Source of the DNA: Candidatus Kapaibacterium sp.
GTDB lineage: Bacteria > Bacteroidota > Ignavibacteria > Palsa-1295
Assembly: GCA_038210275.1 (NCBI GenBank)
Contig: JBBQWV010000002.1
Location: 134,141 to 198,140 of the forward strand
Length of the DNA: 64,000 nucleotides
Direction: 5' to 3'
Shown: one piece after another, positions 3,184 through 50,507 of the stretch
Layout: each line of letters opens with the position of its first letter
How positions within the stretch are numbered: position 1 is the first letter of the stretch
Notes under the pieces: model-generated
What the model saw: the letters and a program-made list of their open reading frames with translations, nothing else
The model's database searches: none
What the model was told of the DNA's origin: nothing
Position numbers and translations under genes: made by a program

Positions 3184-4310
3184 TAATTCTCAGTGCCAAG
3201 TAGAATTTCAACTGGCTTTTGGTTCGGAGCCAAATTCGCAATACTCACCTGCTGCGCCATTGCCTGTGCAATGTCTCTGAATGAATGCGCTGCCTGCGTC
3301 TCCGGACCGCTAACGACGATAGGCGAACCATCATCGCTTCCGACACGAACCGATGTCTCAAGAGGTAGCTCACCCAAGAAAGGTACTCCGAATTCGGTCG
3401 CTGCTTTCGCCGCTCCGCCATGCGAAAAGATTTCTTCGCGATGATGACAAGCCGAGCAAATAAAATAACTCATGTTCTCGATGATTCCAAGAACAGGCAC
3501 GTGTACTTTCTCGAACATACGAACTGCTTTCCGTGCATCAGCAAGAGCCACATCTTGCGGAGTAGTGACAATCACTGCTCCGGTAAGAGGAATAGTTTGC
3601 ACAAGAGTAAGCTGAATATCCCCTGTTCCGGGAGGAAGATCAAAGATCAGATAATCGAGTTCACCCCAAAGCACATCCGACATAAATTGCTTCAATGCAC
3701 CTGATGCCATGGGACCGCGCCATACGACTGCGGTATTTGGATCAACGAGGAATCCAATCGACATCACCTTCACTCCGTGCGCTTCAAGAGGGATCATCAT
3801 CGCATGACCATTCACTTGTTGTGCCTCAGGTTTTGAATATTCCAAGCCGAACATTAGTGGAATGCTCGGGCCATAAATATCGGCATCAAGTAACCCGACC
3901 TTCGCCCCATCTTTTGCGAGTGCAACAGCGAGATTCGCTGCAACGGTTGACTTCCCTACTCCACCTTTGCCGGAAGCAACAGCGATGGTGTTCCGAACAC
4001 CTAAAAGTGCAGTCGGTTTATTTACCCCTTGCTGCATTGCCACGTTCGATGTCATCGCAACTTTTACATTACCTTCACCGGCAATTTTTTCTACTGTAGT
4101 CCGCGCTTCGAGTTCAAGTTTATCTTTGAGCGGGCATGAGGGTGTAGTAAGTTCAAATGTAAAAGATACTTGATCGCCTGCAATCTTTATATTCTTTATC
4201 ATCCCAAGCGAGACGACATCTTTATGAAGATCGGGGTCAATGACGGCGCGAAGAGCATCAAGCACTTCCGCTTCAGTAAGAGTAGAACTATTTTTTGAAA
4301 AGAATCCCAT
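3183..4310 (-). CDS. apbC: Fe-S cluster carrier ATPase Mrp/ApbC (N-terminal DUF59 plus ParA-type P-loop)
   Basis: Walker A SGKGGVGKSTVAANLA, CxxC near C-terminus (CSAC), N-terminal MIP18/DUF59-like domain. Adjacent to the Nfu gene. Confidence 0.85.
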   Translation of the reverse strand: MGFFSKNSSTLTEAEVLDALRAVIDPDLHKDVVSLGMIKNIKIAGDQVSFTFELTTPSCPLKDKLELEARTTVEKIAGEGNVKVAMTSNVAMQQGVNKPTALLGVRNTIAVASGKGGVGKSTVAANLAVALAKDGAKVGLLDADIYGPSIPLMFGLEYSKPEAQQVNGHAMMIPLEAHGVKVMSIGFLVDPNTAVVWRGPMASGALKQFMSDVLWGELDYLIFDLPPGTGDIQLTLVQTIPLTGAVIVTTPQDVALADARKAVRMFEKVHVPVLGIIENMSYFICSACHHREEIFSHGGAAKAATEFGVPFLGELPLETSVRVGSDDGSPIVVSGPETQAAHSFRDIAQAMAQQVSIANLAPNQKPVEILLGTEN

Positions 4311-4368
4311 TGAAATTTATTTTATGTGGCGCTAAAACAGAATGAGAGGAGCATGGGTTCGGATTCCT

Positions 4369-5058
4369 CTACTCTCTGGCATTATGCGCCACAATGCTAT
4401 CGGCAAATGCATGGATTTCGCGCTTTAATGCGGGCGTCAGGTATTTCGCATTTTTTGATTGCATTTTATTAATGTAACCTGCAATATCATCCGTTGGTAT
4501 ATTATTTTGAGAGATGCTATTAACCCAATATTTGAATGACCATTTATATTGCGGCATTCGGAGCTTCTGATAAAATTCATCAACGAATTGCATACTGTAA
4601 TGTACAGCATATGATGGCAGCAGTTCGGGATCAGTAGCCCAAGGCTCACCAAGTCGATAAAATCTCAGAAAGAGAAAATAATAGAATGGACGTGTCGTAT
4701 CGTTTTGCGTAAGAAGACTATCACATAAATAGTAGGTCTCCGAATTATCAACGCTCGGAATAAATCGAAGCAAATAAAAATTCTTGGCAGTTTGCGATAC
4801 ATCACTTCTATTGAGGTAAAATGAAACCGGTCTACCTTCGATAAGAGAATCCGATAGAGGAAATATTTTCCTCATCTCATCGCTTATACCGACGCTATCA
4901 GTATTCACTTTACCTGTATCAAGTTCACTAAGCGGCACATCCTGATCCGTCCACCGAGCGCTATCGGGCATGAACAGCTTCTTCTTTCCGCCGCCGCAGC
5001 TTTCCATCACCGTTAACAGGATAATAAGTGTATAAATAATTAGAGTAGCTCTATTCAT
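4369..5058 (-). CDS. hypothetical lipoprotein
   Basis: Signal peptide plus lipobox (LTVMESCGGG). No recognised catalytic motifs. Confidence 0.4.
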   Translation of the reverse strand: MNRATLIIYTLIILLTVMESCGGGKKKLFMPDSARWTDQDVPLSELDTGKVNTDSVGISDEMRKIFPLSDSLIEGRPVSFYLNRSDVSQTAKNFYLLRFIPSVDNSETYYLCDSLLTQNDTTRPFYYFLFLRFYRLGEPWATDPELLPSYAVHYSMQFVDEFYQKLRMPQYKWSFKYWVNSISQNNIPTDDIAGYINKMQSKNAKYLTPALKREIHAFADSIVAHNARE

Positions 5059-5132
5059 AGATTACTTTCAACAGCCAACCGCTATTCTTCATTCAACAGG
5101 AATTTTCTTCCCAATCATTCGTTAAATACTCC

Positions 5133-6760
5133 ATGCTCAGGAATGTGGTTTTGGTCATCGCCTTCATGGTTGCAGTTCTCTCAACTGCAAGCGATCTATG
5201 TGCGCAATTATTAATCGTGCCTCCCGCTCGGTTATCGCCTGATAATTTTTTCGATGCCGAAGGAGTATCAATCGTCATCAATCCTTCCAATTCGTCTCAG
5301 ATTGCTGCGGGATCAAACGTAAATTATTATTATTTCTCGACCGACTTAGGACATTCATGGCAAGCGAATGCTTTGAATCCCACGTTCGGTGATGGTGGTG
5401 ATCCCTCGCTTACCTCCGATTCAAAAGGAAATTTCTATTATGCACATCTATCCAGCGAAGTTAATGGCGTAGGATATAATCAAGATAGGATCGTTATTCA
5501 GAAATCAACAGATGGGGGAAAAACATATTCACCCGGGACATTCACCGGACATGACCGTTCTCCAAAACAGCAATTCAAGGAATGGATCACTTGCGATAAT
5601 TCATCTTCCACGCCATACAAAGATAATCTTTATCTTTCTTGGACAGAGTTTGATTCTTATCAAAGTCATTTTCCGCAATTTGATAGCACGAGAATTCTTT
5701 TCTCGGGTTCAACCGATGCAGGCGAAACATGGTCTGATGCCGTGACTGTAAGCGATAAAGAAGGTGATACCATTGATAGCACCAACTCCGTTAATGGCTC
5801 AAGATGTATCACCGGTCCTAACGGCGAAATTTATGTTACGTGGGAAGGACCCGACGGATTGCTATTCGATAAATCAACCGACGGCGGAAAATCTTTTACA
5901 AAAGATAAACTCCTTGAGCAACTTGTGCCGGGCTGGAGGTTTGATATCAAGGGTATTTATCGCGCCAATGGATTTGCTACTCCGCTTTGTGATAACGGTA
6001 ATTCGAAACATCGCGGAAATCTTTATGTACTTTTTTCCGATAAACGCAACGGACCGGATGATTGTGATATTTTTCTGCTTCGCTCAACGAATGGCGGTGA
6101 TTCATGGAGTTCACCTGTTCGTGTGAATGACGATACGTCGCATCTCGAACAATTTTTTCCATCAGCAGCGATTGACGAAACTACCGGATTCATCTATGCA
6201 GTCTTTTATGATCGCAGGGATCATAAAGGTACGAATCTCACAGAAGTATATCTTGCCAGATCTATTGATGGGGGCAGAGTTTTCAAAATTTCAGATTACA
6301 TTCAGCTCCTTTCAATCCAAACAACAAGATTTACATCGGTGATTATACTCATATCGCTGCCCATAATACATTAGTCTATCCGACTTGGACGGACATACAT
6401 ACAAATAACGATGGAGTATCTTATTCTGAAAGTATTTGGATATGCAGAGTTATTGATACCGGCGCGTTTAATTTAGATGTCCCGACTCCGATGGATAGGA
6501 AGCAATCTTTCTCCTTACACGTCGTTCCAAATCCTGCACGATCGGAGATTCAAATCCAATTCAGTCATCCGCTCGAAAGGAATTCTTCCATTCAAATAAC
6601 CGACGTAGTAGGAAGAACTCTCGTAAACAGCATTGAAGGAGAGTACGACAATAAAGACAGAATTACTTATGATATAAGCAACCTTCCAAGCGGCATCTAC
6701 TATTGTTTAGTACAATACGGAACAGAGCACGCCATTCAAAAAATAATCGTGTCACATTAA
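5133..6760 (+). pseudogene. BNR/Asp-box repeat (sialidase-like) T9SS cargo protein, frameshifted at a G5 tract (frames 5133..6374 and about 6269..6760)
   Basis: The upstream frame carries at least four S.D.G.(T/S)(W/F) BNR motifs (STDGGKTY, STDAGETW, STDGGKSF, STNGGDSW). It reads ...ARSIDGG then runs out of frame. The other frame continues ...QSFQNFRLHSAPFNPNNKIYIGDYTHIAAHN... and ends in a T9SS C-terminal domain (GIYYCLVQYGTEHAIQKIIVSH). Joining them at GGGGG (about 6270..6274) recreates a perfect SIDGGQSF BNR motif. Confidence 0.55.
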
Positions 6761-6774
6761 GAGAATTTAAACTT

Positions 6775-6829
6775 AAAAGTCAAAGATCAAAACGTGATTT
6801 CTATTTTTGACTTTTAGCTTTTGACTTTT
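6775..6829. terminator. A/T-rich inverted repeat (AAAAGTCAAAG...CTTTGACTTTT) between convergent genes; terminator-like, overlapping the last codons of the minus-strand CDS
   Basis: About 10-bp arms with flanking A/T runs. Located between the stop of the 5133..6760 gene and the stop of 6801..7256. Confidence 0.4.
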
Positions 6830-7256
6830 GAATTCTCTTAATGCTTTTTCCCATCCGTTCTTTATATTCTTTCGGAGGGTATTCAACCTTTGCCATCTCC
6901 TTCACAAATTTCTCGGCAATATCAAGCGGCATCTGTACTACGTCCTTAAAATTAATGCAGCCCTTTTGGAATTTTGCTTTTGGCATAAGCTTTTCGAATT
7001 TCTCGCGCAAGCCGCTTCCACCAAAACCTTTTGAACTGCCATACATTACCATCGAATGGAATGACATGTGCTCCTTCACCGAGGAAAGTGCATACTTCAT
7101 GATATCGCCTTGCATATACATAAGCATTTCCTTCCCCATCATACTGCTCACGACTTCTTTAACAAGCGGGTCAGATTTTAAAATAAGCTCGCGCAATTTG
7201 GATAAGATCGCCTTGCGATCTTCGGGCAGAGAATCAAGATATTCTTTAGGTGTCAT
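6801..7256 (-). CDS. hypothetical protein, DUF1801 (YdhG-like) resemblance
   Basis: N-terminus MTPKEYLDSLPEDRKAILSKLRELI resembles DUF1801 proteins. Lys-rich C-terminus is encoded partly by the hairpin repeat. Confidence 0.35.
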   Translation of the reverse strand: MTPKEYLDSLPEDRKAILSKLRELILKSDPLVKEVVSSMMGKEMLMYMQGDIMKYALSSVKEHMSFHSMVMYGSSKGFGGSGLREKFEKLMPKAKFQKGCINFKDVVQMPLDIAEKFVKEMAKVEYPPKEYKERMGKSIKRIQKSKAKSQK

Positions 7257-7318
7257 GCGTTTGAAAAAATATGAAATGTGAAAGCTGACTATGGGACTCG
7301 ATATTTTTATTTACAATT

Positions 7319-7723
7319 TTATTCTTCACTTGCAGTTTCAGCTTCTTGCCGAGGGTTTCCATAAGAAGGTCTCTTCTCATTCCTCAAAGTAGTCCAGTCT
7401 TCTTCTCGATAGGCTTTTAAGGTATAATCTATCTGTTCATCAAAGGCAGCAGGGCTATGAGAGAATATGAGTGGGCGGATATCAACGCTCCACCCTTCCA
7501 AATGTTTCGCATTATAAAGAGCTTCGCGCTCTTCGGCAGTCTCGCAAAAAAAAACTGCAATGCCTCCGGGCTTGCCAATAAAATGGTCGTGGAAGATAAC
7601 CAGAGGCAGAGTCCTATCGCCGACAAATTCATTGAATATCCGGTTTACTTCCGAAGGCAGCATAACCACCGGCGCTAAGGCATAGGCGAGGAAGCATCGC
7701 GGTTTTTTAATTGGTGGTATCAT
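7319..7723 (-). CDS. hypothetical protein
   Basis: 134-aa ORF. Its start overlaps the stop of the upstream T9SS gene by 4 nt (translational coupling). No recognisable motif. Confidence 0.4.
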   Translation of the reverse strand: MIPPIKKPRCFLAYALAPVVMLPSEVNRIFNEFVGDRTLPLVIFHDHFIGKPGGIAVFFCETAEEREALYNAKHLEGWSVDIRPLIFSHSPAAFDEQIDYTLKAYREEDWTTLRNEKRPSYGNPRQEAETASEE

Positions 7724-8766
7724 TCTACAATTACCTTCTTCGTCACCACTCCCTCTGCCGTTTCCATTCGAACATAATACATACCCGGCGGAAGCTTAAA
7801 AGAGAAATCGCGATGCAGATCATTCATCATACCATCGAAGACCGTCATCACATCTTTGCCGAGTTCGTTGAAGACGTTGAGGTGGAGATATCCCGTGTAT
7901 TGAGACGAATATGAGACATAGAGCAATCCAATTGCAGGATTAGGGTGAATATAAAGCACTGCTGGCAGTTGCAAAGTCTTAATGACGTTACTCTTAAGTT
8001 TAGGATTAAAAACAAAACTTATTGGAATGGTAATCATAGAATCAATGCTATGATTTTTTATGTGGGTATGGAGCACCCCAAGAAACCTCATAGTATCTAG
8101 GAATACTGATGCTGATGTAACAAAGTGGAATCTCAACGTTTTAAAAGATAAGGGATTCACTATTGTATTTTGAAGAATAATTGAATCTGTACTAGCAATC
8201 ACGGATAATTTGGATTCTGTACCTACATCTAAAGAAAATTTATCGCAAAATAGAGGATCATTAATATTGTTAAAAACTTGTACCTCAATAATTGGTGAAG
8301 GACTCGCAGGAAGGTAATTCAATCCATTCGAATCTGGACGAAAAAATAATCCGTTATTTTTGTGCACCCTCAACTTAACTGTGCTATCGAAATAACTTTC
8401 TACATCGAAATTTCTGACTTCATTCATAGAAAGTTTACAATCACTACAGCTAGGGCTGTAAACATGTGTCCAAGTAAATGTAAAGGTGTCTACATATTTT
8501 CCTACAACCGTTGGATTTACATTAAATGGCGAAAATAGATTCCAACCAAATGGCGCCTGAGGGAATAAAGGATAATGGTTTGTTCTATACACTTCTATAA
8601 ATTGGTAGCTACAGGTATCCAAACCTCTAGAACAAGACTGATAAACAATCTTAATATATTGAGGGGTATACAGGATCGAATCTGAACCTACTGGTACGCG
8701 AATGACTTGAGAAGTGCTCATCCTTACCATACTAAGAACCATCAAAACACAAACCAGAACTTTCAT
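7720..8766 (-). CDS. secreted protein with T9SS C-terminal sorting domain
   Basis: Signal peptide MKVLVCVLMVLSMVRMSTSQ. C-terminus PGMYYVRMETAEGVVTKKVIVE is typical of Por_Secre_tail. Confidence 0.6.
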   Translation of the reverse strand: MKVLVCVLMVLSMVRMSTSQVIRVPVGSDSILYTPQYIKIVYQSCSRGLDTCSYQFIEVYRTNHYPLFPQAPFGWNLFSPFNVNPTVVGKYVDTFTFTWTHVYSPSCSDCKLSMNEVRNFDVESYFDSTVKLRVHKNNGLFFRPDSNGLNYLPASPSPIIEVQVFNNINDPLFCDKFSLDVGTESKLSVIASTDSIILQNTIVNPLSFKTLRFHFVTSASVFLDTMRFLGVLHTHIKNHSIDSMITIPISFVFNPKLKSNVIKTLQLPAVLYIHPNPAIGLLYVSYSSQYTGYLHLNVFNELGKDVMTVFDGMMNDLHRDFSFKLPPGMYYVRMETAEGVVTKKVIVE

Positions 8767-8887
8767 AGTATTTTTAGCAAATGTTTACCATACAAAGATA
8801 CGTCAGAAATCCAAAAATTGTACCAATCAGACAAGGTCAAATACTATTGCCCTATTTCTCATTTAGAATTTCATCTGTGGATACAGC

Positions 8888-11848
8888 TTACCCCACCTGT
8901 ATCTTCAATTTCTCCATCTGCACCCTAAAGCTCTCGAGTTTTTCCTTTTCTTTGATAATGATATGCTCCGGAGCACGGCTGACGAAGTTGTCATCGCTGA
9001 GTTTTGCGTTTAGACTTTCGTATTGCTTTACAATGCGCTCAAGCTCTTTGCGGAGACGGTCTTTTTCTTTCTTGGTATCTTCTTCGCTTTGCGCTTCCTG
9101 TTTAATAAAGATCTGGCCTCTTCCGGCAAGTAATTCAGCAGCATACTCTTTTGAGGACAGCTCTCTCATTGTGTCATTGCGAGGAATCTGCGCAGCAGAC
9201 GACGCGGCAATCTCAAAATTCTCGGTACTATTAGACATTTTAGATTGCTTCGCTGCGCTCGCAATGACGTCCCCAAATGTGTCTTGTTCGATTATGAGTG
9301 ATGAAGCTTTACATATCTTTTCAATGATATTTCGCGAAGCTTCTGTGAGAATTAAATCTTCTTGAGTCTTCAAACGAATAATAAACTCTGCCGACTTGCT
9401 CGGAACAAGTTTTGCATTCGCACGCAAGAGTCTTGCGGCTTCAATAATTTTTTGTATAAAAGCGAATTCCTCTTCCGCTTCATCATCTATCTTTCCTTCA
9501 TCGGCTGTGATGTAGTCATCTCTGCCAATAAGCATATTTTCCGGATTACCCGTTAAGCCATGCCAAAGCTCTTCGGTGACAAATGGCATGATTGGATGGA
9601 TCATTCGGAGAATGCCTTCGAGAATTTCCACAGCAAGCGGAGTTGATTCGGGCTGTAGCTTTACGATCTCCAAATACCAATCGCAATAATCTTTCCAGAT
9701 GAAATCGTAAAGGTATTTTGTAACGTCATTAATGAGATAGGCGTCGAAAGCTTTCTTCACATCTCGCGCAGTTCTATTCGCACGAGAGAGAATCCATTTA
9801 TCAGCGAGGGTAGACGGTGGTTTTGCAGAGAAGCCAGCCTTCTCCAGTGGGACGGACTTTAGTCCATCCGTCTCACGGACTGAAGTCCGTGCCACTGAAT
9901 TGTTATATTCTGTATCTTCAGATTCAAACTTCGGCTCGGGATGAGTTGATTGATATTCATCACGCTTCATTAATATAAAGCGTGTTGCATTATATAATTT
10001 ATTTGCAAAATTCCTGCCTTGTTCACAGCTTTCTTCTCCGAAACGAACATCTTGTCCGAGCGGTGCCAGATAGAGCAATGTAAAACGAACAGCATCCGTA
10101 CCATATTTACGAACGAGATCAATCGGATCGGGCGAGTTGCCGAGCGACTTACTCATTTTCCTTCCCTGCTGGTCACGCAAGATATTATGGAAATACACAT
10201 CGGTGAAAGGAATCAGATCTTCTAACTTTTCACGTTTCGAACCATCGGGCATCTCCATACCTTGCATGAATTCGATGCCGCCCATGATCATTCGCGCAAC
10301 CCAGAAGAAAATAATATCGGGCGCAGTTGAAAGCAGATTGCCGGGATAAAATAATTGCAGATCTTTTGTATTCTCTGGCCAACCGAATGTCGCAAAGGGC
10401 CAGAGCCACGATGAGAACCATGTATCAACGACATCGGGATCTTGACGGAGTTCGCCTTTGTATCCAGCGGCATCGGCTTTAGCTCTTGCTTCGGCATCAT
10501 TACGTCCGACAAATATTTCTCCATCAACTCCATACCAAGCTGGAATGCGCTGCCCCCACCAAAGCTGGCGTGAGATACACCAATCACGAATCCCTGTCAT
10601 CCAATGACGATAGGTATTGATCCAGCGTTCTGGATGAAAATGAATAAGTCCATCTTCAACAACTTTTAGTGCAGGCTCGGCAAGCGGCTTCATCGAAACG
10701 AACCACTGATCAGATAGATATGGCTCGATCATCTCGCCGCCGCGTTCAGAATAGCCTACAGAATGAGTATATTCATCAATCTTCTCAATAAGCCCCATCT
10801 CTTCCAATTCCGCAACGATCTTCTTTCGTGCAACAAAGCGGTCCAGTCCTGCAAATTTTCCACCGAGTTCGTTGATATGGGCTTTTGTATCCATGACATT
10901 GATTTGTGGCAAATCATGTCGCTTTCCGATCTCGAAATCGTTTGGGTCATGGGCAGGAGTAATCTTCACACATCCTGTTCCAAATTCTTTATCGACGTAG
11001 TCATCGGCAATGATCGGGATTTCCCTATCCATAAATGGAAGCTGAAGTTTTCTGCCGATGAGTTTTATGTATCGTTCATCAGTAGGATTGACAGCAACGG
11101 CAACGTCGCCAAGCATTGTCTCAGGGCGCGTTGTTGCAATGACAATAAATTCTGGTTCGCCGGATTTCCTATCGATAAGCGGATAACGGAAATGATAAAG
11201 CTTGCCTTTCGTCTCTTTGTAATTTACTTCTTCGTCGCTAAGAGCAGACTGTGCAACAGGGGACCAATTAATGATACGCTTGCCTTTATAGATCAGCCCT
11301 TTTTCATAAAGTCTGACAAATGCTTCAACGACAGCTTTCTCATAGCTCGCATCCATCGTGAAAGTGAAACGGCGCCAATCTGGTGAGCAGCCGAGAGCAC
11401 GAAGTTGCTTCTCTATAAAATCAGAATGCTCATGCTTCCACTTCCAAACTTCGTCAATAAATTTTTCACGACCCAAATCGTGACGAGTCTTTCCCTCTTC
11501 TTTTAATTTCTTCTCAACTTTCGTCTGCGTTGCAATTCCCGCATGATCGGTGCCCGGCATCCACAGGGCTTCATGCCCAAGCATCCGGTGATAGCGGATA
11601 TAGGTATCCTGAATGGCATTATTGAGCGCATGACCCATGTGCAGAATGCCCGTCACATTCGGCGGCGGCATACAGACTACGAATGGCGGCTTGTCATTGG
11701 CGCGGCGTCCGGTGGGGTCCTGCGGTACTTCATCGGGGCGATTGGCTTCAAAAAGCTTCTCCGCTTCCCAACGCTCGTACCACTGCTGTTCAACATCCTG
11801 CGGCGCATACGCCTTCGGTAATTCCCTTTTCTCTATTTCTGACATCAA
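8888..11848 (-). CDS. valS: valine--tRNA ligase (986 aa)
   Basis: Class I HIGH (ILHMGHALNN) and KMSKS motifs. Editing and anticodon-binding regions align with E. coli ValRS (…NKLYNATRFILM…DKWIL…CDWYLE). C-terminal coiled coil. Confidence 0.95.
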   Translation of the reverse strand: MMSEIEKRELPKAYAPQDVEQQWYERWEAEKLFEANRPDEVPQDPTGRRANDKPPFVVCMPPPNVTGILHMGHALNNAIQDTYIRYHRMLGHEALWMPGTDHAGIATQTKVEKKLKEEGKTRHDLGREKFIDEVWKWKHEHSDFIEKQLRALGCSPDWRRFTFTMDASYEKAVVEAFVRLYEKGLIYKGKRIINWSPVAQSALSDEEVNYKETKGKLYHFRYPLIDRKSGEPEFIVIATTRPETMLGDVAVAVNPTDERYIKLIGRKLQLPFMDREIPIIADDYVDKEFGTGCVKITPAHDPNDFEIGKRHDLPQINVMDTKAHINELGGKFAGLDRFVARKKIVAELEEMGLIEKIDEYTHSVGYSERGGEMIEPYLSDQWFVSMKPLAEPALKVVEDGLIHFHPERWINTYRHWMTGIRDWCISRQLWWGQRIPAWYGVDGEIFVGRNDAEARAKADAAGYKGELRQDPDVVDTWFSSWLWPFATFGWPENTKDLQLFYPGNLLSTAPDIIFFWVARMIMGGIEFMQGMEMPDGSKREKLEDLIPFTDVYFHNILRDQQGRKMSKSLGNSPDPIDLVRKYGTDAVRFTLLYLAPLGQDVRFGEESCEQGRNFANKLYNATRFILMKRDEYQSTHPEPKFESEDTEYNNSVARTSVRETDGLKSVPLEKAGFSAKPPSTLADKWILSRANRTARDVKKAFDAYLINDVTKYLYDFIWKDYCDWYLEIVKLQPESTPLAVEILEGILRMIHPIMPFVTEELWHGLTGNPENMLIGRDDYITADEGKIDDEAEEEFAFIQKIIEAARLLRANAKLVPSKSAEFIIRLKTQEDLILTEASRNIIEKICKASSLIIEQDTFGDVIASAAKQSKMSNSTENFEIAASSAAQIPRNDTMRELSSKEYAAELLAGRGQIFIKQEAQSEEDTKKEKDRLRKELERIVKQYESLNAKLSDDNFVSRAPEHIIIKEKEKLESFRVQMEKLKIQVG
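9173..9268. repeat. family A palindromic element, copy 2, 96 nt, inside the valS ORF and in frame
   Basis: GTCATTGCGAGG...GGCAATCTCAAAA...TTTTAGATTGC...CTCGCAATGAC. Length 96 is 32 codons with no stop in the valS frame. Encodes ...DVIASAAKQSKMSNSTENFEIAASSAAQIPRNDTM... just before the ValRS C-terminal coiled coil. Confidence 0.75.
9845..9897. repeat. family B palindromic element, copy 1, inside the valS ORF
   Basis: CAGTGGGACGGACTTTAGTCC..ACGGACTGAAGTCCGTGCCACTG. Matches the B copies flanking lexA. Encodes ...SVARTSVRETDGLKSVPLEKAGF... within a segment absent from E. coli ValRS at the equivalent position. Confidence 0.65.
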
Positions 11849-13955: not shown

Positions 13956-15539
13956 CTATTCGGGGTCAAGTTTCCAGAGCGCGAGATCAGGCATAATAGG
14001 ATTTCTTATTGCCTTTCTGAAATCAACGACAAGATTTTTATTCAAAAGCCTGAATGAACCTGCGAACGTACGGTAAAGTGGCGAATAAATATCAACCTGC
14101 TGGCTTCCGTCAGAATTAAGTTTATTCACATAGGCAATCGATTCATCCGGATGTTCAGTCGTTTGACCGAGCCAGTATTGCACATTCTTCTCTTTGAGAT
14201 ATGCACCTATCCCCTCTTTTTGCAACCGATCGTTATAGTCATAATCACTAATCAGTCCATCCGAAGGAAGGATATTCATATCAGAATAATAGGCGATCAT
14301 GCCGGGCCAATCATAAATAAAAATATTCGTATGCGATGGTAGATTGCGTTTCAACCAAAAGGCGATTTCTATCTGCCACTTGCGATCCGTTTTGCCATGG
14401 AGATTAAACGGATTGAGGTTTTGTGAGTCACCATTCAAATATTTTCCCCAAGAACGGAATCCTGCACAAACCATTAGCAATGTAAATAAAGAGATAGCAA
14501 GGACTGATTTGAACTGCTTACGGTTTGGTATTATCCACGTCATGAGCAACTCAAAAAGTTGAGCGAGAAGCATTGAAAGCAATAAAATTCCTGCAACATA
14601 ATACCATGCCCATCTTGTATTACCATCAGTGAAGAGGAAAAGATAAAGACAGAGGAGCAGAACTCCACATGAAAGAGTGCAATAAATAAATTTTCTTCCT
14701 ATGTTTTCTTTTGAGAAAACGCCGAAGATCAAACCGACAAGGGCTGCCAGTATTGCAATCTCACCCACGCCCATAACTGCATGAATGTTAGCCGCTACAT
14801 GGGGGAATGTACTCTTAATCGCACCGCTTATGGGGACGAGGTGTCCGAATGAAAAACAATTGTACAAGATATACGGAATTGCAAGCAAGGCAAATGGCAA
14901 CGTCGCCTCAAGGAGGCATCGAATATATCGGCGATCTTTTCCTCGTGAGAGTTTCCACCAAGCAATAACAGCAAAAGCACCGATAACAAATACTGAATCG
15001 AGACGTGCTAAGAAAAGCAATCCGCTCAGAATTCCAATGCTAAACCAACTCTTCGAGGAGTAACTTGGTGACAGTATCTCTTTCGAAAAATAATACGTGA
15101 GCATTAATAACACAAGTCCATTTATATGCGCTTCGGAACCATAAAGACCGGTACAAAGGAAATATAATGTCAAAACAGGAATACAGAGATACCAATACCG
15201 AAGTTTTAAGAATTCATTCAGCCGATAAAGGTAATAAATAATTCCTATAAAAAATAATTGCTGAGTAATGCAAACCAAAAGAAGTGCAATATCTTTATTC
15301 CCTGCAGAAAGAAAAAATATCCCTGTGCAGCAGTATTGCCAAAGCGGATGAAACCCGTTCGTCAGAGTAATTTGGTTGAACGTACTGCCGTAACCACTTA
15401 CGATATTTCTCGCAACCTGTAAATAAAAGAAGGCATCATCAGAGGGATAATGTTCCGGACGCAGCAAAACCGAAATAATGCAGGCGATGACTCCGGCTAT
15501 TCCAAGAATTGCAATCAAAAATTTTTCAGATCTTGGCAT
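13956..15539 (-). CDS. polytopic membrane protein, GT-C-like (ArnT/PMT_2-type glycosyltransferase fold)
   Basis: About 12 predicted TM helices in the N-terminal two thirds with a soluble C-terminal domain. Resembles dolichyl-phosphate-mannose protein mannosyltransferase-like bacterial proteins. Confidence 0.4.
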   Translation of the reverse strand: MPRSEKFLIAILGIAGVIACIISVLLRPEHYPSDDAFFYLQVARNIVSGYGSTFNQITLTNGFHPLWQYCCTGIFFLSAGNKDIALLLVCITQQLFFIGIIYYLYRLNEFLKLRYWYLCIPVLTLYFLCTGLYGSEAHINGLVLLMLTYYFSKEILSPSYSSKSWFSIGILSGLLFLARLDSVFVIGAFAVIAWWKLSRGKDRRYIRCLLEATLPFALLAIPYILYNCFSFGHLVPISGAIKSTFPHVAANIHAVMGVGEIAILAALVGLIFGVFSKENIGRKFIYCTLSCGVLLLCLYLFLFTDGNTRWAWYYVAGILLLSMLLAQLFELLMTWIIPNRKQFKSVLAISLFTLLMVCAGFRSWGKYLNGDSQNLNPFNLHGKTDRKWQIEIAFWLKRNLPSHTNIFIYDWPGMIAYYSDMNILPSDGLISDYDYNDRLQKEGIGAYLKEKNVQYWLGQTTEHPDESIAYVNKLNSDGSQQVDIYSPLYRTFAGSFRLLNKNLVVDFRKAIRNPIMPDLALWKLDPE

Positions 15540-22783: not shown

Positions 22784-23962
22784 CTACTGCAAAAGTATCT
22801 TTTTTACCACTACCGAATTTGTGGTTACAAATTTGGCATAATATATTCCGGGCGCTTGCTTCGAAAGATCGATGGTGAAATTTGACGAATGCGGGTTTGT
22901 AAGTTCTAATACTTTCTCCCCAAGAATGTTTGCGATGGTAACTTGGGATGTATTTTCGGGTGCACCATATATAGTTATTACTCCATTGGTCGGATTTGGA
23001 AAAAGCGAAATATTCAACGGGTTTGCAATATATTTTTGCTTCACATCCAGCCCAGCAAGTGGGTGTTTCCAGATACCATCTTTGTCAGTACCTGCAAAGA
23101 AATAGGAGGTGCTTACTCCAAATGTTGTGACACTAATTGAATCTGTCAGACCAGTGTTAAATTTCATCCAACTTGTACCACTATCGGAAGAAAGAAAAAT
23201 TCCGGCATCTGTCCCTGCAAAAAGATTCTTGCCTATCACCGCCAAGGCATAGATAGTGTGAACCTCATTAAAATCTCCTAACATACTGCATACTTTCCAA
23301 GTTATTCCATTGTCCGTTGAATGACAAACTTGATTACTCCTTCCCACAAAAAGATCGGATCCATTTGAGATAATACATTTAAAAATCCCTATGAAGCCAA
23401 GACGTTTCCAACTCGAACCAAAATCGGTCGAAACCAATATACTATCAACCGAAGATGTAGTTGCGAATAGACTCGTACCATTTACAGCAAAACGATTAAA
23501 ATCATTCGTCTGAAAATGAAAATCTAACTCAGTCCAACTCATGCCACTGTCGGATGAAACAAAACTATCATATCCTCCAGCAATAATTTTTGTTCCGATG
23601 ACTGCAAGACAGTGTATATTCCTCATATATTCAACTGTAGTTGTCCAAGTTTTTCCGGTGTCAGATGAGAGGAAGAGTCCTTTCGTTGTGCCTGTAATGA
23701 TAGTATTTCCAATTTTTGTAAAACAGAAGATAGGAATGGTATCAAAAAAACTGTTCCCTATGTCCTTCCAACTTACACCGCTATTGGTTGAAAGCAAAAT
23801 TCCATGATTGCTCGTCCCGGCATAGATATTATCACCATCGACAAAAAAGCAAGTCTCCCAAGCATTATGTGGCGCAGTTGTCTGAACCCATTGGCTCCTA
23901 ACATTTGAAGCCATGAACGTGATCTGGAGAAGGAATGCGATGAGTATTAATTTCTGTTTCAT
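22784..23962 (-). CDS. BNR-repeat (sortilin/Ycf48-like beta-propeller) protein with T9SS C-terminal sorting domain
   Basis: Six S.D.G.(S/T)W motifs (STNSGVSWK, SSDTGKTWT, SSDSGMSWT, STDFGSSWK, STDNGITWK, SSDSGTSWM). C-terminus PGIYYAKFVTTNSVVVKKILLQ. Probable start at MKQKLILIAF (signal peptide). Confidence 0.65.
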   Translation of the reverse strand: MKQKLILIAFLLQITFMASNVRSQWVQTTAPHNAWETCFFVDGDNIYAGTSNHGILLSTNSGVSWKDIGNSFFDTIPIFCFTKIGNTIITGTTKGLFLSSDTGKTWTTTVEYMRNIHCLAVIGTKIIAGGYDSFVSSDSGMSWTELDFHFQTNDFNRFAVNGTSLFATTSSVDSILVSTDFGSSWKRLGFIGIFKCIISNGSDLFVGRSNQVCHSTDNGITWKVCSMLGDFNEVHTIYALAVIGKNLFAGTDAGIFLSSDSGTSWMKFNTGLTDSISVTTFGVSTSYFFAGTDKDGIWKHPLAGLDVKQKYIANPLNISLFPNPTNGVITIYGAPENTSQVTIANILGEKVLELTNPHSSNFTIDLSKQAPGIYYAKFVTTNSVVVKKILLQ

Positions 23963-24065
23963 AATTTTTAATCCCGAATCATTTTTATTGTTATAATATA
24001 GGGATTGATTTGGTAATGTTCTTGAGCCTATAAAGAACTTATTAAATCTGAAATAGTTACACTTT

Positions 24066-24091
24066 ACGGACGGACTAAAGTCCGTCCCACT
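24066..24091. repeat. family B palindromic element, half copy
   Basis: ACGGACGGACTAAAGTCCGTCCCACT, in the divergent promoter region between the BNR gene and lexA. Confidence 0.6.
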
Positions 24092-24212
24092 CACAATACC
24101 AAACTTCGAGAGTCACGCAAAACTTCGACTTATCTCCCAACCCTAAAAATTTCGGATTTTACGCGGAGGCGAAAAAGATTGCTTATATTAGTACGTGCTC
24201 TTATGGGCACCT

Positions 24213-36088: not shown

Positions 36089-37798
36089 TTAATGCTGCAC
36101 AATGAATGGGATCTGATTTTTTTTCCCATCTTGGTTGACATACATAAAATAATTTCCGGAAGGTAGTTTGTCAATATGAATTGATATATTATGATCATCA
36201 ATAATTTCGAACTGACATTGAAATTTTCTTCCGAGCATATCAAAGAATTCTGGTTTTGAGAACCTCCCATTGCTATTGGAATGAATCGTCACTTGTGAAT
36301 TTGCAGGGTTCGGGTAAATGTTGAAACTCGGATTATTTGCTTCCGATACTGGAATGGTCTCTGAATTAGAACTACCACTAAGCTTGAAGACCCAAGCATT
36401 TTTACCCGATGAATCCTGATGTTGCCCCAAGAGATCACCGTCATGAGAATTTGAAGATCCGGCGATGGCGAAACCTCCGTCAGAGGTTTTTACAATAGAA
36501 AATGCCCCATCGTCGCCTGTTCCACCAAGGCATTTCTGCCATTGAATGTTGCCTGAAGAACTAAGCTTAATTATCCATGCATCGGACCCACCATGGTTAC
36601 CTGCTATATATTCATCTGTTGATCTTGTGAAGCCCGCTACTGCATACCCGCTATCCGGTGTTTGTATAATACTTGATATTTCCTCTGCATTTATCCCCCC
36701 CAAGCATTTCTGCCATTGGATAGCACCTAATGAAGTGAGTTTAACAAACCATGCGTCGGAATTGCCATGATTACCTGCAACATCTCCATCAATACAATTT
36801 GTTGTTCCTGCGACGGCAAATCCCCCATCAACAGTTTTGATGAGACTATATAACTCTGTATAACCGGAACCTCCGAGGCACTTCTGCCAAATTATTTTTC
36901 CCGTATCGTTCGTTTTTACAACCCAACCGTCAGGATTTTTATAAGATTTGGCATGAAATCCCACAACATCGCCATCAGATGAAGTAGTAGATCCTGCGAT
37001 AACATATCCATGATCATAATCTTCTACGATCGAGTGACCATAGTCTTGGTCTGTTCCGCCCAGACATTTTTGCCATTTAATCCTTCCGGATGAATCAAGA
37101 TGAACGATCCAGACATCAGAAAAATAATCTGGATAGATGCCCGAATGAAATCCCATAACATCTCCATCAAAAGAAGTCGTGTATCCAACGAAAGTATATC
37201 CTCCTTCTTTACCGGAGTTTTCAATAATCGAAGTTGCATACTCGGAATATTCTCCACCAATACATTTCTGCCATTCTATAATCCCTGAATTCGTCAGTTT
37301 TACTATCCATGCGTCCGAACAAGGATATTCGATCGAAGGACTTACTCCTCCATGCTGCCCTTTAACATCTCCATCAAATGAAGTTGTGTAGCCAGAGGCT
37401 ATATACCCACCATCACGTGTGTGAATAATGCATGAAAATGCTTCATCACCCGATCCTCCAAGACATTTCTGCCATTCGATAATACCCAAAGAATCAAATT
37501 TTGCGATCCAGGCATCAATGCCTTCGACTCCACGAACACCGTCTTTGCCATGGTTATCAATGAAATCTCCATCGGAAGAATACGTACCACCTACAGCAAT
37601 ATACCCGCCATCAGAAGTCTGAAGAATGGAACTTGCCCAATCATCATGAGTACCACCAAGAACTTCCTGCCATTGAATTCCGGGAACCATCTGTGAATAA
37701 ACTGCGCAAGGCGAAATGATAAAAATAACAATACACAATTGCGCAATTCGAATTTTGCAATTCAGGATCGCGTCTTTTAATTGTTCATTCATTGCCAT
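36089..37798 (-). CDS. tandem-repeat (beta-propeller-type, about 47-aa unit x8-9) secreted protein with T9SS C-terminal domain
   Basis: Repeating unit ...GGT.DD.A.SI..T.DGGY..AG.T.S.DGD..G.HG.SDAWI.KL...G.I.WQKC.GG... C-terminus PSGNYFMYVNQDGKKNQIPFIVQH. Confidence 0.6.
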   Translation of the reverse strand: MAMNEQLKDAILNCKIRIAQLCIVIFIISPCAVYSQMVPGIQWQEVLGGTHDDWASSILQTSDGGYIAVGGTYSSDGDFIDNHGKDGVRGVEGIDAWIAKFDSLGIIEWQKCLGGSGDEAFSCIIHTRDGGYIASGYTTSFDGDVKGQHGGVSPSIEYPCSDAWIVKLTNSGIIEWQKCIGGEYSEYATSIIENSGKEGGYTFVGYTTSFDGDVMGFHSGIYPDYFSDVWIVHLDSSGRIKWQKCLGGTDQDYGHSIVEDYDHGYVIAGSTTSSDGDVVGFHAKSYKNPDGWVVKTNDTGKIIWQKCLGGSGYTELYSLIKTVDGGFAVAGTTNCIDGDVAGNHGNSDAWFVKLTSLGAIQWQKCLGGINAEEISSIIQTPDSGYAVAGFTRSTDEYIAGNHGGSDAWIIKLSSSGNIQWQKCLGGTGDDGAFSIVKTSDGGFAIAGSSNSHDGDLLGQHQDSSGKNAWVFKLSGSSNSETIPVSEANNPSFNIYPNPANSQVTIHSNSNGRFSKPEFFDMLGRKFQCQFEIIDDHNISIHIDKLPSGNYFMYVNQDGKKNQIPFIVQH

Positions 37799-37817: not shown

Positions 37818-40790
37818 CTATTTTAATACACTGACATTCCGGCTCATCACTTTGCCATTGCAATCAACTCGCAAGGTATAATGTCCTGCCGGAATATTGC
37901 GCAGATCAAGCGGCAGATCATACGAGCCTTGATAGAGTTCGCCGTTTACAACATTCGCAACTTCTCTTCCAAGATCATCAAAGAGAGAAATTTTTACTTC
38001 GCCGAAATTTGCAAGAGTCAGTTTTACTTTTGCATCGGTTTGCGCAGGGTTCGGCATGATACTCACGCTTGTTACTGAATTCCCATCTGCGGTGACTCCA
38101 TTATTCGGTGTATTCATCGTTTCGATATAATACCAAGGAGTATTGATGACTGATTGGTCTATCGCAATTTTAAATGTATTAGTGCCGGTGATCTTGATCC
38201 CCTCGATTGAAGAAGCCATCATATTTCCAGTTTGATCGAGCGGGTGAACGATGAGGCGATTCGAATCAGAATTCACAAAAAATTCAAATTTTCCGGCACT
38301 CATGATCGTCGGTGCTGCTCCCCAATGATTGCCGATACTGGAATCTCCGTATTGCCAAATAGCACGGGAGTTTTGAGAGCGAGTAGCCGTTGTCAAAAGC
38401 ATAGTCGATGATGAAAGCTGTGAAAGCAATATCGACTGCAAATCTCCGGCATTATCCAATCTTCGAAACTTGAGCGCTCCGTCTTTGACTGTATCAGCGC
38501 CAAATACTCCAACGGCAGCATTGAATCCATTTGAATTGGCTAAGAAATATCTACCAGTTTGGCTCCAGCGGAGTTCGCCGGTTGCGGATATTTTTGTTGA
38601 GGTATCGGTGGTATATGGATATTCAGCAGCCACCTTCGGTGTCGTTACATCAAACTTCTGACGGACAAGATCCTGAGTAGCAATATTGGGGTCAAGATAT
38701 CCTTCGACTCCGAAGGGTCCTTGATAATGACCCGGCACACTTTCGAGCAAAACATCATCAGCAACGTGAGTCACGGTATCAACCGACGTAGCAGCTTTTA
38801 TTTTCTGATTTCTGAATGCATCGCTTGCCTGTGGCATTTGGATAAGAAGCGACGGACTGCCTGCTATACTCCACCAACTACCGGCACGGGCGATGTTTGC
38901 GAAAAGATCTTCATAGTATGTTGCATAATTGACAAAGAAAAGCCCGTCCCAATCTTGTAATGAAGCATAAGAAGTAAAGAATGGTACTACTTCTGCGGAT
39001 TGTTGATTAGTCACAAGATTCATAAACCTCCCGACAAACGGCTTTCCTGCTATGCTTGCCGCAGCGAGACTTCCCATAGTCCCATTTCCAGCATCGGAAA
39101 GAATATTATTATTGAGCATCACCCAAGTTGAGTCTGAGTACGCTGGTCCACCAGGTCGGGTATGTGGATAATCGGTATTAATGTGCGACTGAGCAAAATC
39201 ACTATACCTATTTGCATAATGATCCTGCAACGTTCCCCAATACTCTGGTGCATAAAAGTTTACGAGTACAGGTGATTTTAATGTATCGGTAATACATTTT
39301 TTTATCGCCGTGAAATAATCATTTTGTAAAGAATCGTAAAAGAGAGCCAAATCACGCGGTCTCTGACGTGGAAGCAGATCAGTTTCGCCAAATTTAATTC
39401 GGACAATAGATGAAGTTGAACTGGCTTCACCGGGGAAGAGTCCATATTCCACTTTTCGCTTGATCGAAACTGCATCGAACATCACATCACCTAATTGCTG
39501 TCCTAAAGCGAAGTATAATGTATGCAAACCACCTGCCTTCGCTCTGAACGGAAAAGTATATTTTTTCCATGATGTATCAATTGTCTGGCTCACTCCAAGA
39601 GAGTTGATGCCGGTTTGATATTGTGAAAGGTATGCATAGATCGATCTGGTAAGTACCGGATTTGCAGGACTATAACGAATCTTCGCATAGAACGATAATT
39701 CATAAAGAGTATCTTTTCCTAAACGTGGAGTAGTGTTCTGCAAGTAAGCGTCGAAGGAACTTGGTGTAGCACTTAGACTGCTTATAATAGCAAGCATACA
39801 ATATTGCGAATCAATGGCTGGTGAAAAAATTGTTTTATCACCTGTCGCTCCATTTCCTACAGCAAATGACCAGATTGCCGATCCTACTTGCTCAAAACTT
39901 CCGTTACCAATTAAATTCGGTGGGTTTGGCGGCGCTCCCCCAGCCCAAGCATTATTGATTCCAACATCACTTCCATATTTATGCAAGAGATATTGCGAGA
40001 ACAGAGTATCCAATCGGCGCGAGCGATTCCAGCCTATAGATTGTCCATTCCGGTAAGTACTATTGTCAACCCAATTTATCATTCCGGCACGCCAACCCGT
40101 AAGAAGACTAAAGCCAGGTGAAGTAACTTCGACTGCCGCAAGAACGGGGTCATCGGCAAGCCTTAAACCTGTTAAAGGATTAATATGTGTCAGAATGGTT
40201 TTTACCCATTGGCGATGGAGTTCCGCTGCACGTCTATCAATAAAGTGGGTATATTGTGCACCCATTGTGCTATCAGGCTGTGCGACACCATCTGCCGCAA
40301 TAAAAGTATGTTGGGAATTTAAGACAAGGAATACATAGATACCTTGCTTTTTAAATTCGTTGAGCAGTGTATCAAACCGAGCAACTTGAACAGGATTGAC
40401 ATTATATGACGTAGTCGCATTCGGATAATCGAGAAAGCTTCCTTGCGCCCACCATACTTCATCGTTATCGATCAAACGGATAGCATTGAAACCAAGTTTA
40501 TGCAAACGCTTTGCAAGAACTCTTGCATCTGTTGCACTTAAGAATTGCGATGTATATTCTAACTCCGTTCCGAAGAAACGGATTCGCTCAGAGTTCTTAC
40601 CGCCAACATCAAAATGTCCGCCGTTCAGCGTCACTCTCCGTATAACAGTCGGCGGCTCAGGAAGTATTGAAGATTTTGATGTATCGCTTCCATCTTGTAC
40701 AAAAACATACGGCGATCTGATCGGCTGTGCAGAAATTGAACCTACACAAAGGATAATAATTATCGCAACAGAAGTAAAATATCGTTTCAT
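37818..40790 (-). CDS. large secreted protein with GH5-like TIM-barrel N-terminal region and T9SS C-terminal domain; putative glycoside hydrolase
   Basis: Signal peptide MKRYFTSVAIIIILCVGSISAQ. ...LHKLGFNAIRL... resembles the GH5 GFN(A/T)VR motif. C-terminus GHYTLRVDCNGKVMSRNVSVLK. Catalytic assignment uncertain. Confidence 0.45.
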   Translation of the reverse strand: MKRYFTSVAIIIILCVGSISAQPIRSPYVFVQDGSDTSKSSILPEPPTVIRRVTLNGGHFDVGGKNSERIRFFGTELEYTSQFLSATDARVLAKRLHKLGFNAIRLIDNDEVWWAQGSFLDYPNATTSYNVNPVQVARFDTLLNEFKKQGIYVFLVLNSQHTFIAADGVAQPDSTMGAQYTHFIDRRAAELHRQWVKTILTHINPLTGLRLADDPVLAAVEVTSPGFSLLTGWRAGMINWVDNSTYRNGQSIGWNRSRRLDTLFSQYLLHKYGSDVGINNAWAGGAPPNPPNLIGNGSFEQVGSAIWSFAVGNGATGDKTIFSPAIDSQYCMLAIISSLSATPSSFDAYLQNTTPRLGKDTLYELSFYAKIRYSPANPVLTRSIYAYLSQYQTGINSLGVSQTIDTSWKKYTFPFRAKAGGLHTLYFALGQQLGDVMFDAVSIKRKVEYGLFPGEASSTSSIVRIKFGETDLLPRQRPRDLALFYDSLQNDYFTAIKKCITDTLKSPVLVNFYAPEYWGTLQDHYANRYSDFAQSHINTDYPHTRPGGPAYSDSTWVMLNNNILSDAGNGTMGSLAAASIAGKPFVGRFMNLVTNQQSAEVVPFFTSYASLQDWDGLFFVNYATYYEDLFANIARAGSWWSIAGSPSLLIQMPQASDAFRNQKIKAATSVDTVTHVADDVLLESVPGHYQGPFGVEGYLDPNIATQDLVRQKFDVTTPKVAAEYPYTTDTSTKISATGELRWSQTGRYFLANSNGFNAAVGVFGADTVKDGALKFRRLDNAGDLQSILLSQLSSSTMLLTTATRSQNSRAIWQYGDSSIGNHWGAAPTIMSAGKFEFFVNSDSNRLIVHPLDQTGNMMASSIEGIKITGTNTFKIAIDQSVINTPWYYIETMNTPNNGVTADGNSVTSVSIMPNPAQTDAKVKLTLANFGEVKISLFDDLGREVANVVNGELYQGSYDLPLDLRNIPAGHYTLRVDCNGKVMSRNVSVLK

Positions 40791-40950
40791 AGCGAGATAA
40801 TAAATTTTGTAATGATCAAGACACAAACGCAGGTAGTCTTTTTGACCCCTTTGTAACTCTGGCGGATTTACAATTGGGCAACAATTGTTGCAAAATGTAA
40901 CATTGAGCTTTTAGAAAGCGTTACCCAAAAGTATATGCAAAAAGAGGCTA

Positions 40951-41660: not shown

Positions 41661-42152
41661 ATGAAGAGTAAAAATCTTTTTTTGAATGAACGAAATCTTT
41701 GGCTTTTAGCATTTTGCTTCTTGCCCTGTTTTCTTGCGTGCCGGGATTTCCAAACTCCCGATCAATCCATTCACATTCAAGGAACAGCACAATACTCAAT
41801 TCGTAAAACATTCCGCATTCAAAGTTCAGGCATATTTCCTGATTCACTTGCTCCTATTTATCCGAATCCTTTCAATCACAATATCGGTGATAGTGCCGAG
41901 ACGATCAATTTTACATTGAAGGATACCGGAGAAGTGAAGATTATTATTCAAAATCCTCTCGGAGATTCAGTTGCTATTTTCCGCGATAGCGTTCTGCTGC
42001 CAGGTAGTTTTACCGGCGCTTGGGAGCCTGTGAGTTCAAGTGGGATAAGGCTTCGCGCCGGTCTATATTTCATTACCATCCGCATCGCACCGAATGATCC
42101 GAATAGAAATTACATCAACTCTCGTTTATTACAAATCCAATCCAATGATTAA
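41661..42152 (+). CDS. hypothetical lipoprotein
   Basis: Cys-containing signal region LLAFCFLPCFLACRD. Overlaps the next gene by 8 nt. Confidence 0.35.
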   Translation: MKSKNLFLNERNLWLLAFCFLPCFLACRDFQTPDQSIHIQGTAQYSIRKTFRIQSSGIFPDSLAPIYPNPFNHNIGDSAETINFTLKDTGEVKIIIQNPLGDSVAIFRDSVLLPGSFTGAWEPVSSSGIRLRAGLYFITIRIAPNDPNRNYINSRLLQIQSND

Positions 42153-49122: not shown

Positions 49123-49674
49123 TTACTCAGGCTCAACCTGACCATAATCCAGTTCAACAGGTGTCTTCCTGCCGAAGATAGAAACCTCGACTTTGAGCTT
49201 TTGCTTATCGTCATTGATCTCTTTGATCTGCCCTTGGAATCCGTTAAAAGGTCCATCAATGACCTTAACAGGCTGTCCTAAGAAGTACTTCACCTCCGGA
49301 GACTCCGTATCCTTCTTTTCTTCGACCTTACCCAAGATGCGACGCATCTCATCGGCATGAAGAGCTGTCGGGCGATCTTTTGAAGGACCAACGAAGCTCA
49401 CGACACTTGGAATCGAGAGGATAATATCAATGATCTTCTTATCAATCGCGGCTTCCAAAAGGATGTAGCCGGGAAGAAAGCTCTTTGTTTTGACGCGTTT
49501 TTTTCCATCGCGCACTTCGAACACTTTCTCGACGGGGATAACCACTTCCAAAACACGGTCAGCAAGCCCACGGCGCTTCATCTCATCTTCGATGTATGCC
49601 TTGACCTTATTTTCATGCCCGGTGAAACACCTAAGGGCATACCATTTCATTTGTGTCGCTTGCAGTTCGCTCAT
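49123..49674 (-). CDS. nusG: transcription termination/antitermination factor NusG
   Basis: NGN domain (KWYALRCFTGHENKVK) and C-terminal KOW (GQPVKVIDGPFNGFQGQIKEI). Confidence 0.9.
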   Translation of the reverse strand: MSELQATQMKWYALRCFTGHENKVKAYIEDEMKRRGLADRVLEVVIPVEKVFEVRDGKKRVKTKSFLPGYILLEAAIDKKIIDIILSIPSVVSFVGPSKDRPTALHADEMRRILGKVEEKKDTESPEVKYFLGQPVKVIDGPFNGFQGQIKEINDDKQKLKVEVSIFGRKTPVELDYGQVEPE

Positions 49675-49689
49675 TTGTGGAGTTCGGTC

Positions 49690-49926
49690 TTAGAGTGAAT
49701 AAACAAGGCGCAGGACGACTTCGAAGATCTTATCCACGCCAAAGACGAATGCCGAAAAAAGAACGCATAATCCAAGCGTCACAAGCGTTGCGTCAAGAAG
49801 CTCTTCGCGCGTCGGCCATGTAACCTTCTTCATCTCCTTGTTTACGTCGATGAAGAAACCAATGGTCTTGTCTTTAAGACTCTTTCGCTCAGGAGCGAGT
49901 TGTGTTGAAACGAGTGTATCTGCCAT
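49690..49926 (-). CDS. secE: preprotein translocase subunit SecE
   Basis: 78 aa with a single C-terminal TM helix (TLVTLGLCVLFSAFVFGVD). Conserved position between tRNA-Trp and nusG. Confidence 0.85.
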   Translation of the reverse strand: MADTLVSTQLAPERKSLKDKTIGFFIDVNKEMKKVTWPTREELLDATLVTLGLCVLFSAFVFGVDKIFEVVLRLVYSL

Positions 49927-49930
49927 AATC

Positions 49931-50019
49931 CTTGATAAAAAAGCTAAAAGCTAGAAGCTAAAAGCTAAAAAAAATAGATCGTTGGGCGTCAAACTTTTAG
50001 CTTTTGGCTTCTAGCTCTT
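49931..50019. repeat. long A/T-rich inverted repeat (about 30-bp arms of AGCTAAAAGCT-type units) between tRNA-Trp and secE
   Basis: AAAAGCTAAAAGCTAGAAGCTAAAAGCTAAAA ... TTTTAGCTTTTGGCTTCTAGCTCTTCGCTTTT. Could form a stem of about 30 bp in the minus-strand transcript. Confidence 0.55.
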
Positions 50020-50032
50020 CGCTTTTGTATCG

Positions 50033-50105
50033 CACGTCAGGAGGGAATTGAACCCCCAACCAACGGTTTTGGAGACCGCTACTCTACCAATTGAGCTACT
50101 GACGT
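50033..50105 (-). tRNA. tRNA-Trp (anticodon CCA)
   Basis: Minus-strand sequence ...AGCTCAATTGGTAGAGT.GCGGTCTCCAAAACCGT..GGGGGTTCAATTCCC... Cloverleaf with CCA anticodon. No encoded 3' CCA. Confidence 0.8.
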
Positions 50106-50142
50106 GTCTGAAAGCTGACAGCAACCGCTGGCAGCCTACAGC

Positions 50143-50292: not shown

Positions 50293-50355
50293 TGTCGTAT
50301 TCCTTTCGTAAAAAAAATCTTTGGTAGAGACGCACCATGGCGCGTCTCTACGTAG

Positions 50356-50428: not shown

Positions 50429-50507
50429 AAAAACAAACTTAAACTTTAATGCTTAAAAAACTTCTTCCCCATTTCAGCATTAAACTTTCGAGGCGTAGCC
50501 TCGGCAG

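Follow-up and report, generated by a model that had tools for sequence, protein, structure and literature searches.

A one-base frameshift in an Asp-box poly-G tract probably inactivates a sialidase-fold T9SS cargo gene of Candidatus Kapaibacterium

Two consecutive open reading frames (ORFs) that lie in different frames at positions 5133 to 6760 of a 64,000-nucleotide stretch of Candidatus Kapaibacterium DNA (contig JBBQWV010000002.1; hereafter, the window) raise the question of whether they are two genes or the halves of one and, if the latter, what separated them. The first-pass annotation had treated them as a single secreted protein split by a frameshift in a short poly-G tract, and it had offered three readings of that frameshift: slipped-strand phase variation, a recent inactivating mutation, or a homopolymer sequencing error. 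We examined the reading frames, the homologs, the predicted fold of the restored protein, and a second assembly of the locus in order to weigh these readings.

Two reading frames of one gene meet at a GGGGG tract

In frame 0, the ORF list and its translation give a 413-amino-acid ORF (5133..6374, + strand). Frame 2 has no stop codon over 6269..6757 and closes with the stop codon at 6758-6760; the earliest start codon in this open stretch is the ATG at 6491. Around the tract, frame 0 reads ...VYLARSIDGG|RVFKISDY..., and frame 2 reads ...W(G)QSFQNFRLHSAPFNPNNKIYIGDYTHIAA.... When homologs were aligned to both, they matched frame 0 up to ...ARSIDGG and frame 2 onward from (G)QSFQNFRL.... Since the two frames match homologs on either side, the missing base must lie between GAT (which ends at 6269) and CAG (which starts at 6275), that is, in the G tract. 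The junction had previously been put at GGGGG at about 6270..6274; the tract occupies exactly 6270-6274, and homology places the frame switch there. The gene can thus be described by the following features.

5133..6274, + strand: upstream portion of the gene, read in frame 0, which codes for a putative signal peptide (about residues 1-25), for blades 1-5, and for the first residues of Asp-box 6 (S377 I D G G), from the ORF list, motif scan, Pfam, alignment, and AlphaFold2 (AF2) model.
6270..6274, + strand: GGGGG tract and frameshift site, five bases long although its two Gly codons require six, from the sequence, the G-length series, and the homologs.
6275..6760, + strand: downstream portion of the gene, read in frame 2, which completes Asp-box 6 (QSF) and codes for the last blade, a linker, and the T9SS sorting domain, from the frame-2 translation.
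6527..6751, + strand: C-terminal sorting domain of T9SS type A (residues 466-540 of the restored protein), from PF18962, TIGR04183, and PDB profile matches.
6276..6374, + strand: out-of-frame tail of the present truncated product, RVFKISDYIQLLSIQTTRFTSVIILISLPIIH, with its stop at 6372-6374 and no counterpart in the aligned homologs.

We replaced the tract in silico with G2 to G10 and read the resulting ORF each time. An ORF of 541 to 543 amino acids was obtained only with G3, G6, and G9. G6 yields a single ORF of 542 amino acids with the junction SIDGGQSF; the 541-amino-acid ORF from G3 loses an invariant Gly, and the 543-amino-acid ORF from G9 carries an extra Gly, both of which alter the motif. 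G4 and G7 are dead ends of 402-403 amino acids, the G4 product being 402 amino acids long and reading ...SIDGAEF.... The first-pass annotation held that removing or adding one G produces SIDGGQSF, which is true of the addition but not of the removal. It had likewise named a uniform G4 or G6 in the reads as the finding that would restore a single ORF; G6 would do so, but G4 leaves the frame broken. The restored junction, SIDGGQSFQNFRL, agrees with the homolog consensus ARS-x-DGGESFQNFRL, and the junction peptide expected of the restored, full-length protein is SIDGGQSFQNFR.

The gene contains two G5 runs, one at 5514 and the other at 6270-6274, and each codes for the Gly-Gly of a DGG Asp-box. 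Because both runs encode this dipeptide, the location of the frameshift inside an Asp-box, although correctly noted before, is not a separate coincidence.

The restored protein is a predicted sialidase-fold propeller with a T9SS tail

A homolog search of the restored protein against 5.8 billion protein clusters (E ≤ 1e-5) returned 874 matches. More than 100 homologs, roughly 520-560 amino acids long, carry both halves in one ORF, and most of the best 120 matches are single proteins of about that length that cover more than 90% of the query. The top match is the truncated 413-amino-acid ORF itself, from the NCBI contig (269,336 bp) and from Logan. The next is the best intact relative, which is 63% identical; no intact 542-amino-acid allele was found among the clusters searched. 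Ignavibacteriae and Candidatus Kapaibacterium metagenome-assembled genomes (MAGs) supplied the closest relatives, and the family as a whole, a sialidase-fold propeller with a T9SS tail, comprises more than 870 homologs and is widespread in Ignavibacteria and Bacteroidota MAGs. At the repaired Asp-box, residues S377, D379, G380, G381, and F384 were invariant in a 16-sequence alignment.

A motif scan with S-x-[DN]-x-G-x-[TS]-[WFY] located six Asp-boxes in the restored protein, starting at residues 69, 125, 193, 248, 318, and 377, the first five of which begin at nucleotides 5337, 5505, 5709, 5874, and 6084. The domain matches, in residues of the restored protein, are as follows.

Residues 300-387: Pfam BNR_2, 44.4 bits against a curated cut-off of 31.4.
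Residues 466-540: Pfam Por_Secre_tail (PF18962), 49.6 bits against a cut-off of 27, E = 5.1e-13.
Residues 465-540: TIGR04183, 37.8 bits against a cut-off of 23, E = 1.4e-9.

In a PDB profile search, the sorting domain also matched the Por C-terminal domain (CTD) chains 8glj_D and 8glk_D. The N terminus, MLRNVVLVIAFMVAVLSTASDLCAQ, has a hydrophobic core and a helix at residues 2-19 in the AF2 model, and it appears signal-peptide-like. Pfam, NCBIfam, the homolog alignment, and the predicted fold agree with the earlier view that the two ORFs make up one secreted, sialidase-like T9SS protein.

The AlphaFold2 model of the restored sequence is all-beta (pLDDT 79.6, pTM 0.75). Its top Foldseek matches in the PDB are six-bladed sialidase propellers, namely NEU1 (8du5) and those of M. 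viridifaciens (1eus) and P. gingivalis (8t1y), with E values of 1e-12 to 1e-9, TM scores of 0.4-0.59, identities of 11-17%, and a probability of 1.00 for the top match. The same list also holds PL25 ulvan lyase, the DAIP inhibitor, and sortilin, so the fold leaves the activity unfixed. The protein shares six Asp-boxes, BNR_2, and its best Foldseek matches with the sialidase-superfamily propellers but differs from them in its low identity and in its sequence-level matches to PDB sialidases, which are weak (best E 1.6e-5) and partial, most having no stretch that passes alone. In addition, the RIP tripeptide is absent from the restored sequence, which has a conserved DR[IV]V instead. The catalytic set of GH33 exo-alpha-sialidases consists of an Arg triad that includes the (F/Y)RIP motif, a nucleophile Tyr paired with Glu, and an acid/base Asp; in the restored protein, R119, R187, R362, and R376 are invariant in the 16-sequence alignment, and several Tyr, Glu, and Asp residues are present. 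We considered and rejected the name GH33 sialidase, since the fold and the Asp-boxes alone are shared. On the sequence and the model, we classify the protein as a predicted sialidase-fold propeller of the BNR/Asp-box type that ends in a T9SS type A tail, and we do not assign it to the GH33 sialidases.

Consequence and probable origin of the frameshift

As encoded, translation from the ATG at 5133 leaves the frame after Gly381 and ends at 6372-6374, giving a product of 413 amino acids that consists of 381 native residues and a 32-residue nonsense tail. Judged from the translation and the AF2 model, this product is without strands 385-445 of the last blade and without the whole T9SS sorting domain. 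A six-bladed propeller truncated in this way would be unable to close and, having no sorting signal, would be expected neither to fold nor to be exported by the T9SS; with no closed propeller and no T9SS signal, the allele would be null. The gene shares with T9SS type A cargos a signal-peptide-like N terminus and a sorting domain that scores above both curated cut-offs. It differs from them in that the sorting domain is out of frame as encoded and cannot be attached to the propeller.

The frame runs on without a stop for 163 codons downstream of the junction, with no sign of decay. Against the six closest orthologs, the post-junction propeller is 62.5-70.3% identical (67.2% in four of the six), versus 68-71% before the junction. 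Because these codons have stayed open and match the upstream part in conservation, the event, if real, is recent; an undecayed downstream frame is equally expected of an artefact or of an OFF phase variant.

We favor the reading that the one-base frameshift is an ordinary, recent inactivating mutation that is genuine in the dominant genotype, and we put its probability at roughly 60%. Loss of one base from the Gly-Gly codon pair of Asp-box 6 would have left GGGGG in place of six bases. That base may have been a G that replication slippage removed from a former G6; it may just as well have been the wobble base in GGN GGG or GGG GGN. Among the Gly codons of the window, GGG is used least (11%), and GGG GGG accounts for 1 of 128 Gly-Gly dicodons there when the assumed restoration is excluded, while GGN GGG or GGG GGN occurs 19 times. 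Given this rarity, the lost base may have been a non-G wobble base and not a G that slipped from G6.

Of the three readings offered by the first-pass annotation, the recent inactivating mutation agrees best with the evidence: the frame beyond the junction is still intact, the same G5 is present in a second assembly, and the window has no other homopolymer frameshifts. The locus resembles the ordinary frameshifted pseudogenes and null alleles of bacterial genomes and MAGs in its single indel, its truncated N-terminal ORF, its intact but unreachable downstream frame, and its intact orthologs, and we found no feature here that distinguishes it from them. It is properly annotated as one frameshifted gene (a pseudogene or null allele) and not as a 413-amino-acid "exo-alpha-sialidase" followed by a hypothetical ORF. 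The significance of the break extends little beyond annotation, and the protein family is more worth study than this broken copy.

Alternative explanations for the interrupted frame

If the true genome had G6 (or GGN GGG), the gene would be intact and the base would have been dropped in base-calling or polishing. Such an error is suggested by the position of the break in a homopolymer, by the perfectly open and undecayed frame that follows it, and by the source, a metagenome assembly with a 269-kb contig, as such contigs sometimes come from long reads. A run of 5 or 6 nucleotides is, however, short for an indel error at the consensus level. Homopolymer runs of at least 5 nucleotides number 378 in the window, of which about 290 lie well inside long ORFs and are all in frame; these coding runs include one A9, four A/T8, and one C7, some of them longer than the G tract, and an assembly prone to homopolymer errors is therefore unlikely. 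The A9 at 7546..7554, which with the T9 at 50618-50626 is the longest homopolymer of the window, is in frame in a 134-amino-acid ORF (7319..7723, - strand) and serves as an internal control of accuracy. Furthermore, a Logan contig of run SRR19962015, an independent k-mer assembly made with a different assembler, has no mismatches over 5054 bp against window positions 4213..9266, with both the G5 and the A9 included. The Logan and NCBI assemblies probably share their reads, and both would therefore be compatible with a read error that is systematic or with a mixture of G5 and G6 genotypes that bubble-popping resolved to G5. When the truncated ORF and the two genes beside it were looked up by exact match, this one Logan contig came back and no second sample of the strain, and our literature search on run SRR19962015 found no publication. 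Taken together, a homopolymer sequencing error, one of the readings offered before, is a possible account but is disfavored by the Logan G5 and the in-frame homopolymers of the window, and we consider it unlikely.

Phase variation would make the G tract a contingency locus at which slipped-strand mispairing switches a secreted or surface protein between ON (G6) and OFF (G5) at high frequency. As in the poly-G contingency loci of Campylobacter, Neisseria, and Haemophilus, the tract is a coding poly-G whose length sets the frame of a secreted protein, here a T9SS cargo, and one added G restores that frame; an in-frame G7 is also found in another T9SS cargo of the window (36089..37798, - strand). 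Unlike those loci, however, the tract falls short of the usual length and is not kept in orthologs, and no length variation was seen between the two assemblies of the one sample that carries the strain. PhasomeIt calls phase-variable G/C tracts at a length of at least 7, a cut-off based on experimentally variable tracts (PMC6321876), and both the present length of 5 and the ON length of 6 fall below it. The three closest orthologs have GGC GGT, GGC GGT, and GGT GGC at the Gly-Gly site, and among 80 loci with the orthologous Asp-box, most have a G run of 2 and a few distant ones have an in-frame G5 to G7. The comparison of ortholog tract lengths that the first-pass annotation had proposed as a check thus shows that the tract is not kept. 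No G6 allele was found in the protein clusters or metagenome contigs searched, and no other tract length was found in DNA of the same species by a variable-gap pattern in genome and metagenome contigs or by a protein-guided scan of metagenome contigs. The G runs here instead arise from the Gly-Gly codons of DGG or LGG motifs. On these grounds, we regard an evolved slipped-strand switch as improbable. The broader idea that this G5/G6 tract and the G7 of the other cargo belong to a homopolymer phase-variation repertoire for T9SS proteins in an environmental Ignavibacteria/Kapabacteria-like lineage appears more doubtful still. We know of no description of simple sequence repeat (SSR) contingency loci in this group, and G5/G6 heterogeneity, if it appeared in the reads, would give a first, modest indication that SSR switching occurs in the lineage.

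Programmed recoding would instead produce the full-length protein from the G5 template, either by a -1 ribosomal frameshift or by transcriptional insertion of a G at the tract. A -1 shift at GGG GGC would yield exactly ...DGGQSF.... The heptamer, however, is U GGG GGC and not a slippery X XXY YYZ; the 100 nucleotides downstream (6276-6375) fold at -7.3 kcal/mol (z = +0.26), no better than shuffles; and the orthologs are all unshifted single ORFs, so nothing of a shift is conserved. To our knowledge, the known cases of bacterial transcriptional slippage involve long A/T runs. With no slippery heptamer, no downstream structure, and no shift in any ortholog, programmed recoding is extremely improbable, and the recent inactivating mutation remains our preferred reading.

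Neighboring genes and other T9SS cargo in the window

Beyond the full-length stop, the broken gene (5133..6760, + strand) converges on a gene at 6801..7256 (- strand), and one further element lies between the two.

6774..6816, no strand assigned: AU-rich hairpin with arms AAAAGUCAAAG ... CUUUGACUUUU-like, at -15.3 kcal/mol and a modest z of -1.84.

On its predicted folding, this hairpin may be a bidirectional terminator. A scan for consensus promoters and terminators gave results at or below shuffle expectation and did not call the hairpin.

The window is rich in T9SS cargo. The gene at 36089..37798 (- strand) encodes a cargo of 569 amino acids with Por_Secre_tail (E = 1.6e-10) and about seven repeats that end in WQKCLGG. 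Its G7 at 36695-36701 (coding strand TTG GGG GGG) is in frame and is the longest G/C homopolymer of the window; one G added or removed leads to truncation at residue 383 or 369. Although this run reaches the poly-G cut-off of at least 7, Gly-Gly codons are its probable source. The gene at 22784..24094 (- strand) encodes a second BNR/Asp-box T9SS cargo, which is intact and 436 amino acids long, with Por_Secre_tail and sub-threshold Sortilin-Vps10 and BNR matches; it may be functionally related to the broken gene. The gene at 7720..8766 (- strand) encodes a secreted protein of 348 amino acids with Por_Secre_tail and no further Pfam domain. At 41661..42152 (+ strand) lies a small secreted protein of 163 amino acids that has no Pfam match and whose C terminus resembles a sorting domain by eye. 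Two other predicted proteins, of 1002 amino acids (37818..40826, - strand) and 527 amino acids (13956..15539, - strand), had no Pfam match at E ≤ 1e-5.

We also considered whether the window contains other frameshifts. The overlap candidates at 40915-43086 and 7322-8784 proved to be normal adjacent genes. A 1.4-kb ORF-free gap at 49675-51071 was rejected as a trace of a frameshift, as it is occupied by a cluster of tRNAs and by the short genes rpmG and secE. This region (49123..50916, - strand) comprises tRNAs Thr(TGT)-Tyr-Thr(GGT)-Gly(TCC), a 49-amino-acid L33-like ORF (50143..50292), tRNA-Trp, a secE-like ORF (49690..49926), and nusG (49123..49674). The tRNAs and small genes thus explain the sole long ORF-free gap of the window. 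In contrast to the classical tufB arrangement, tuf is absent between these tRNAs. A glycosyltransferase-like gene, named from its sequence (51072..51824), lies next to two tandem paralogs of 817 amino acids (51854..54307 and 54307..56760, - strand), each with a C-terminal match to YfhO.
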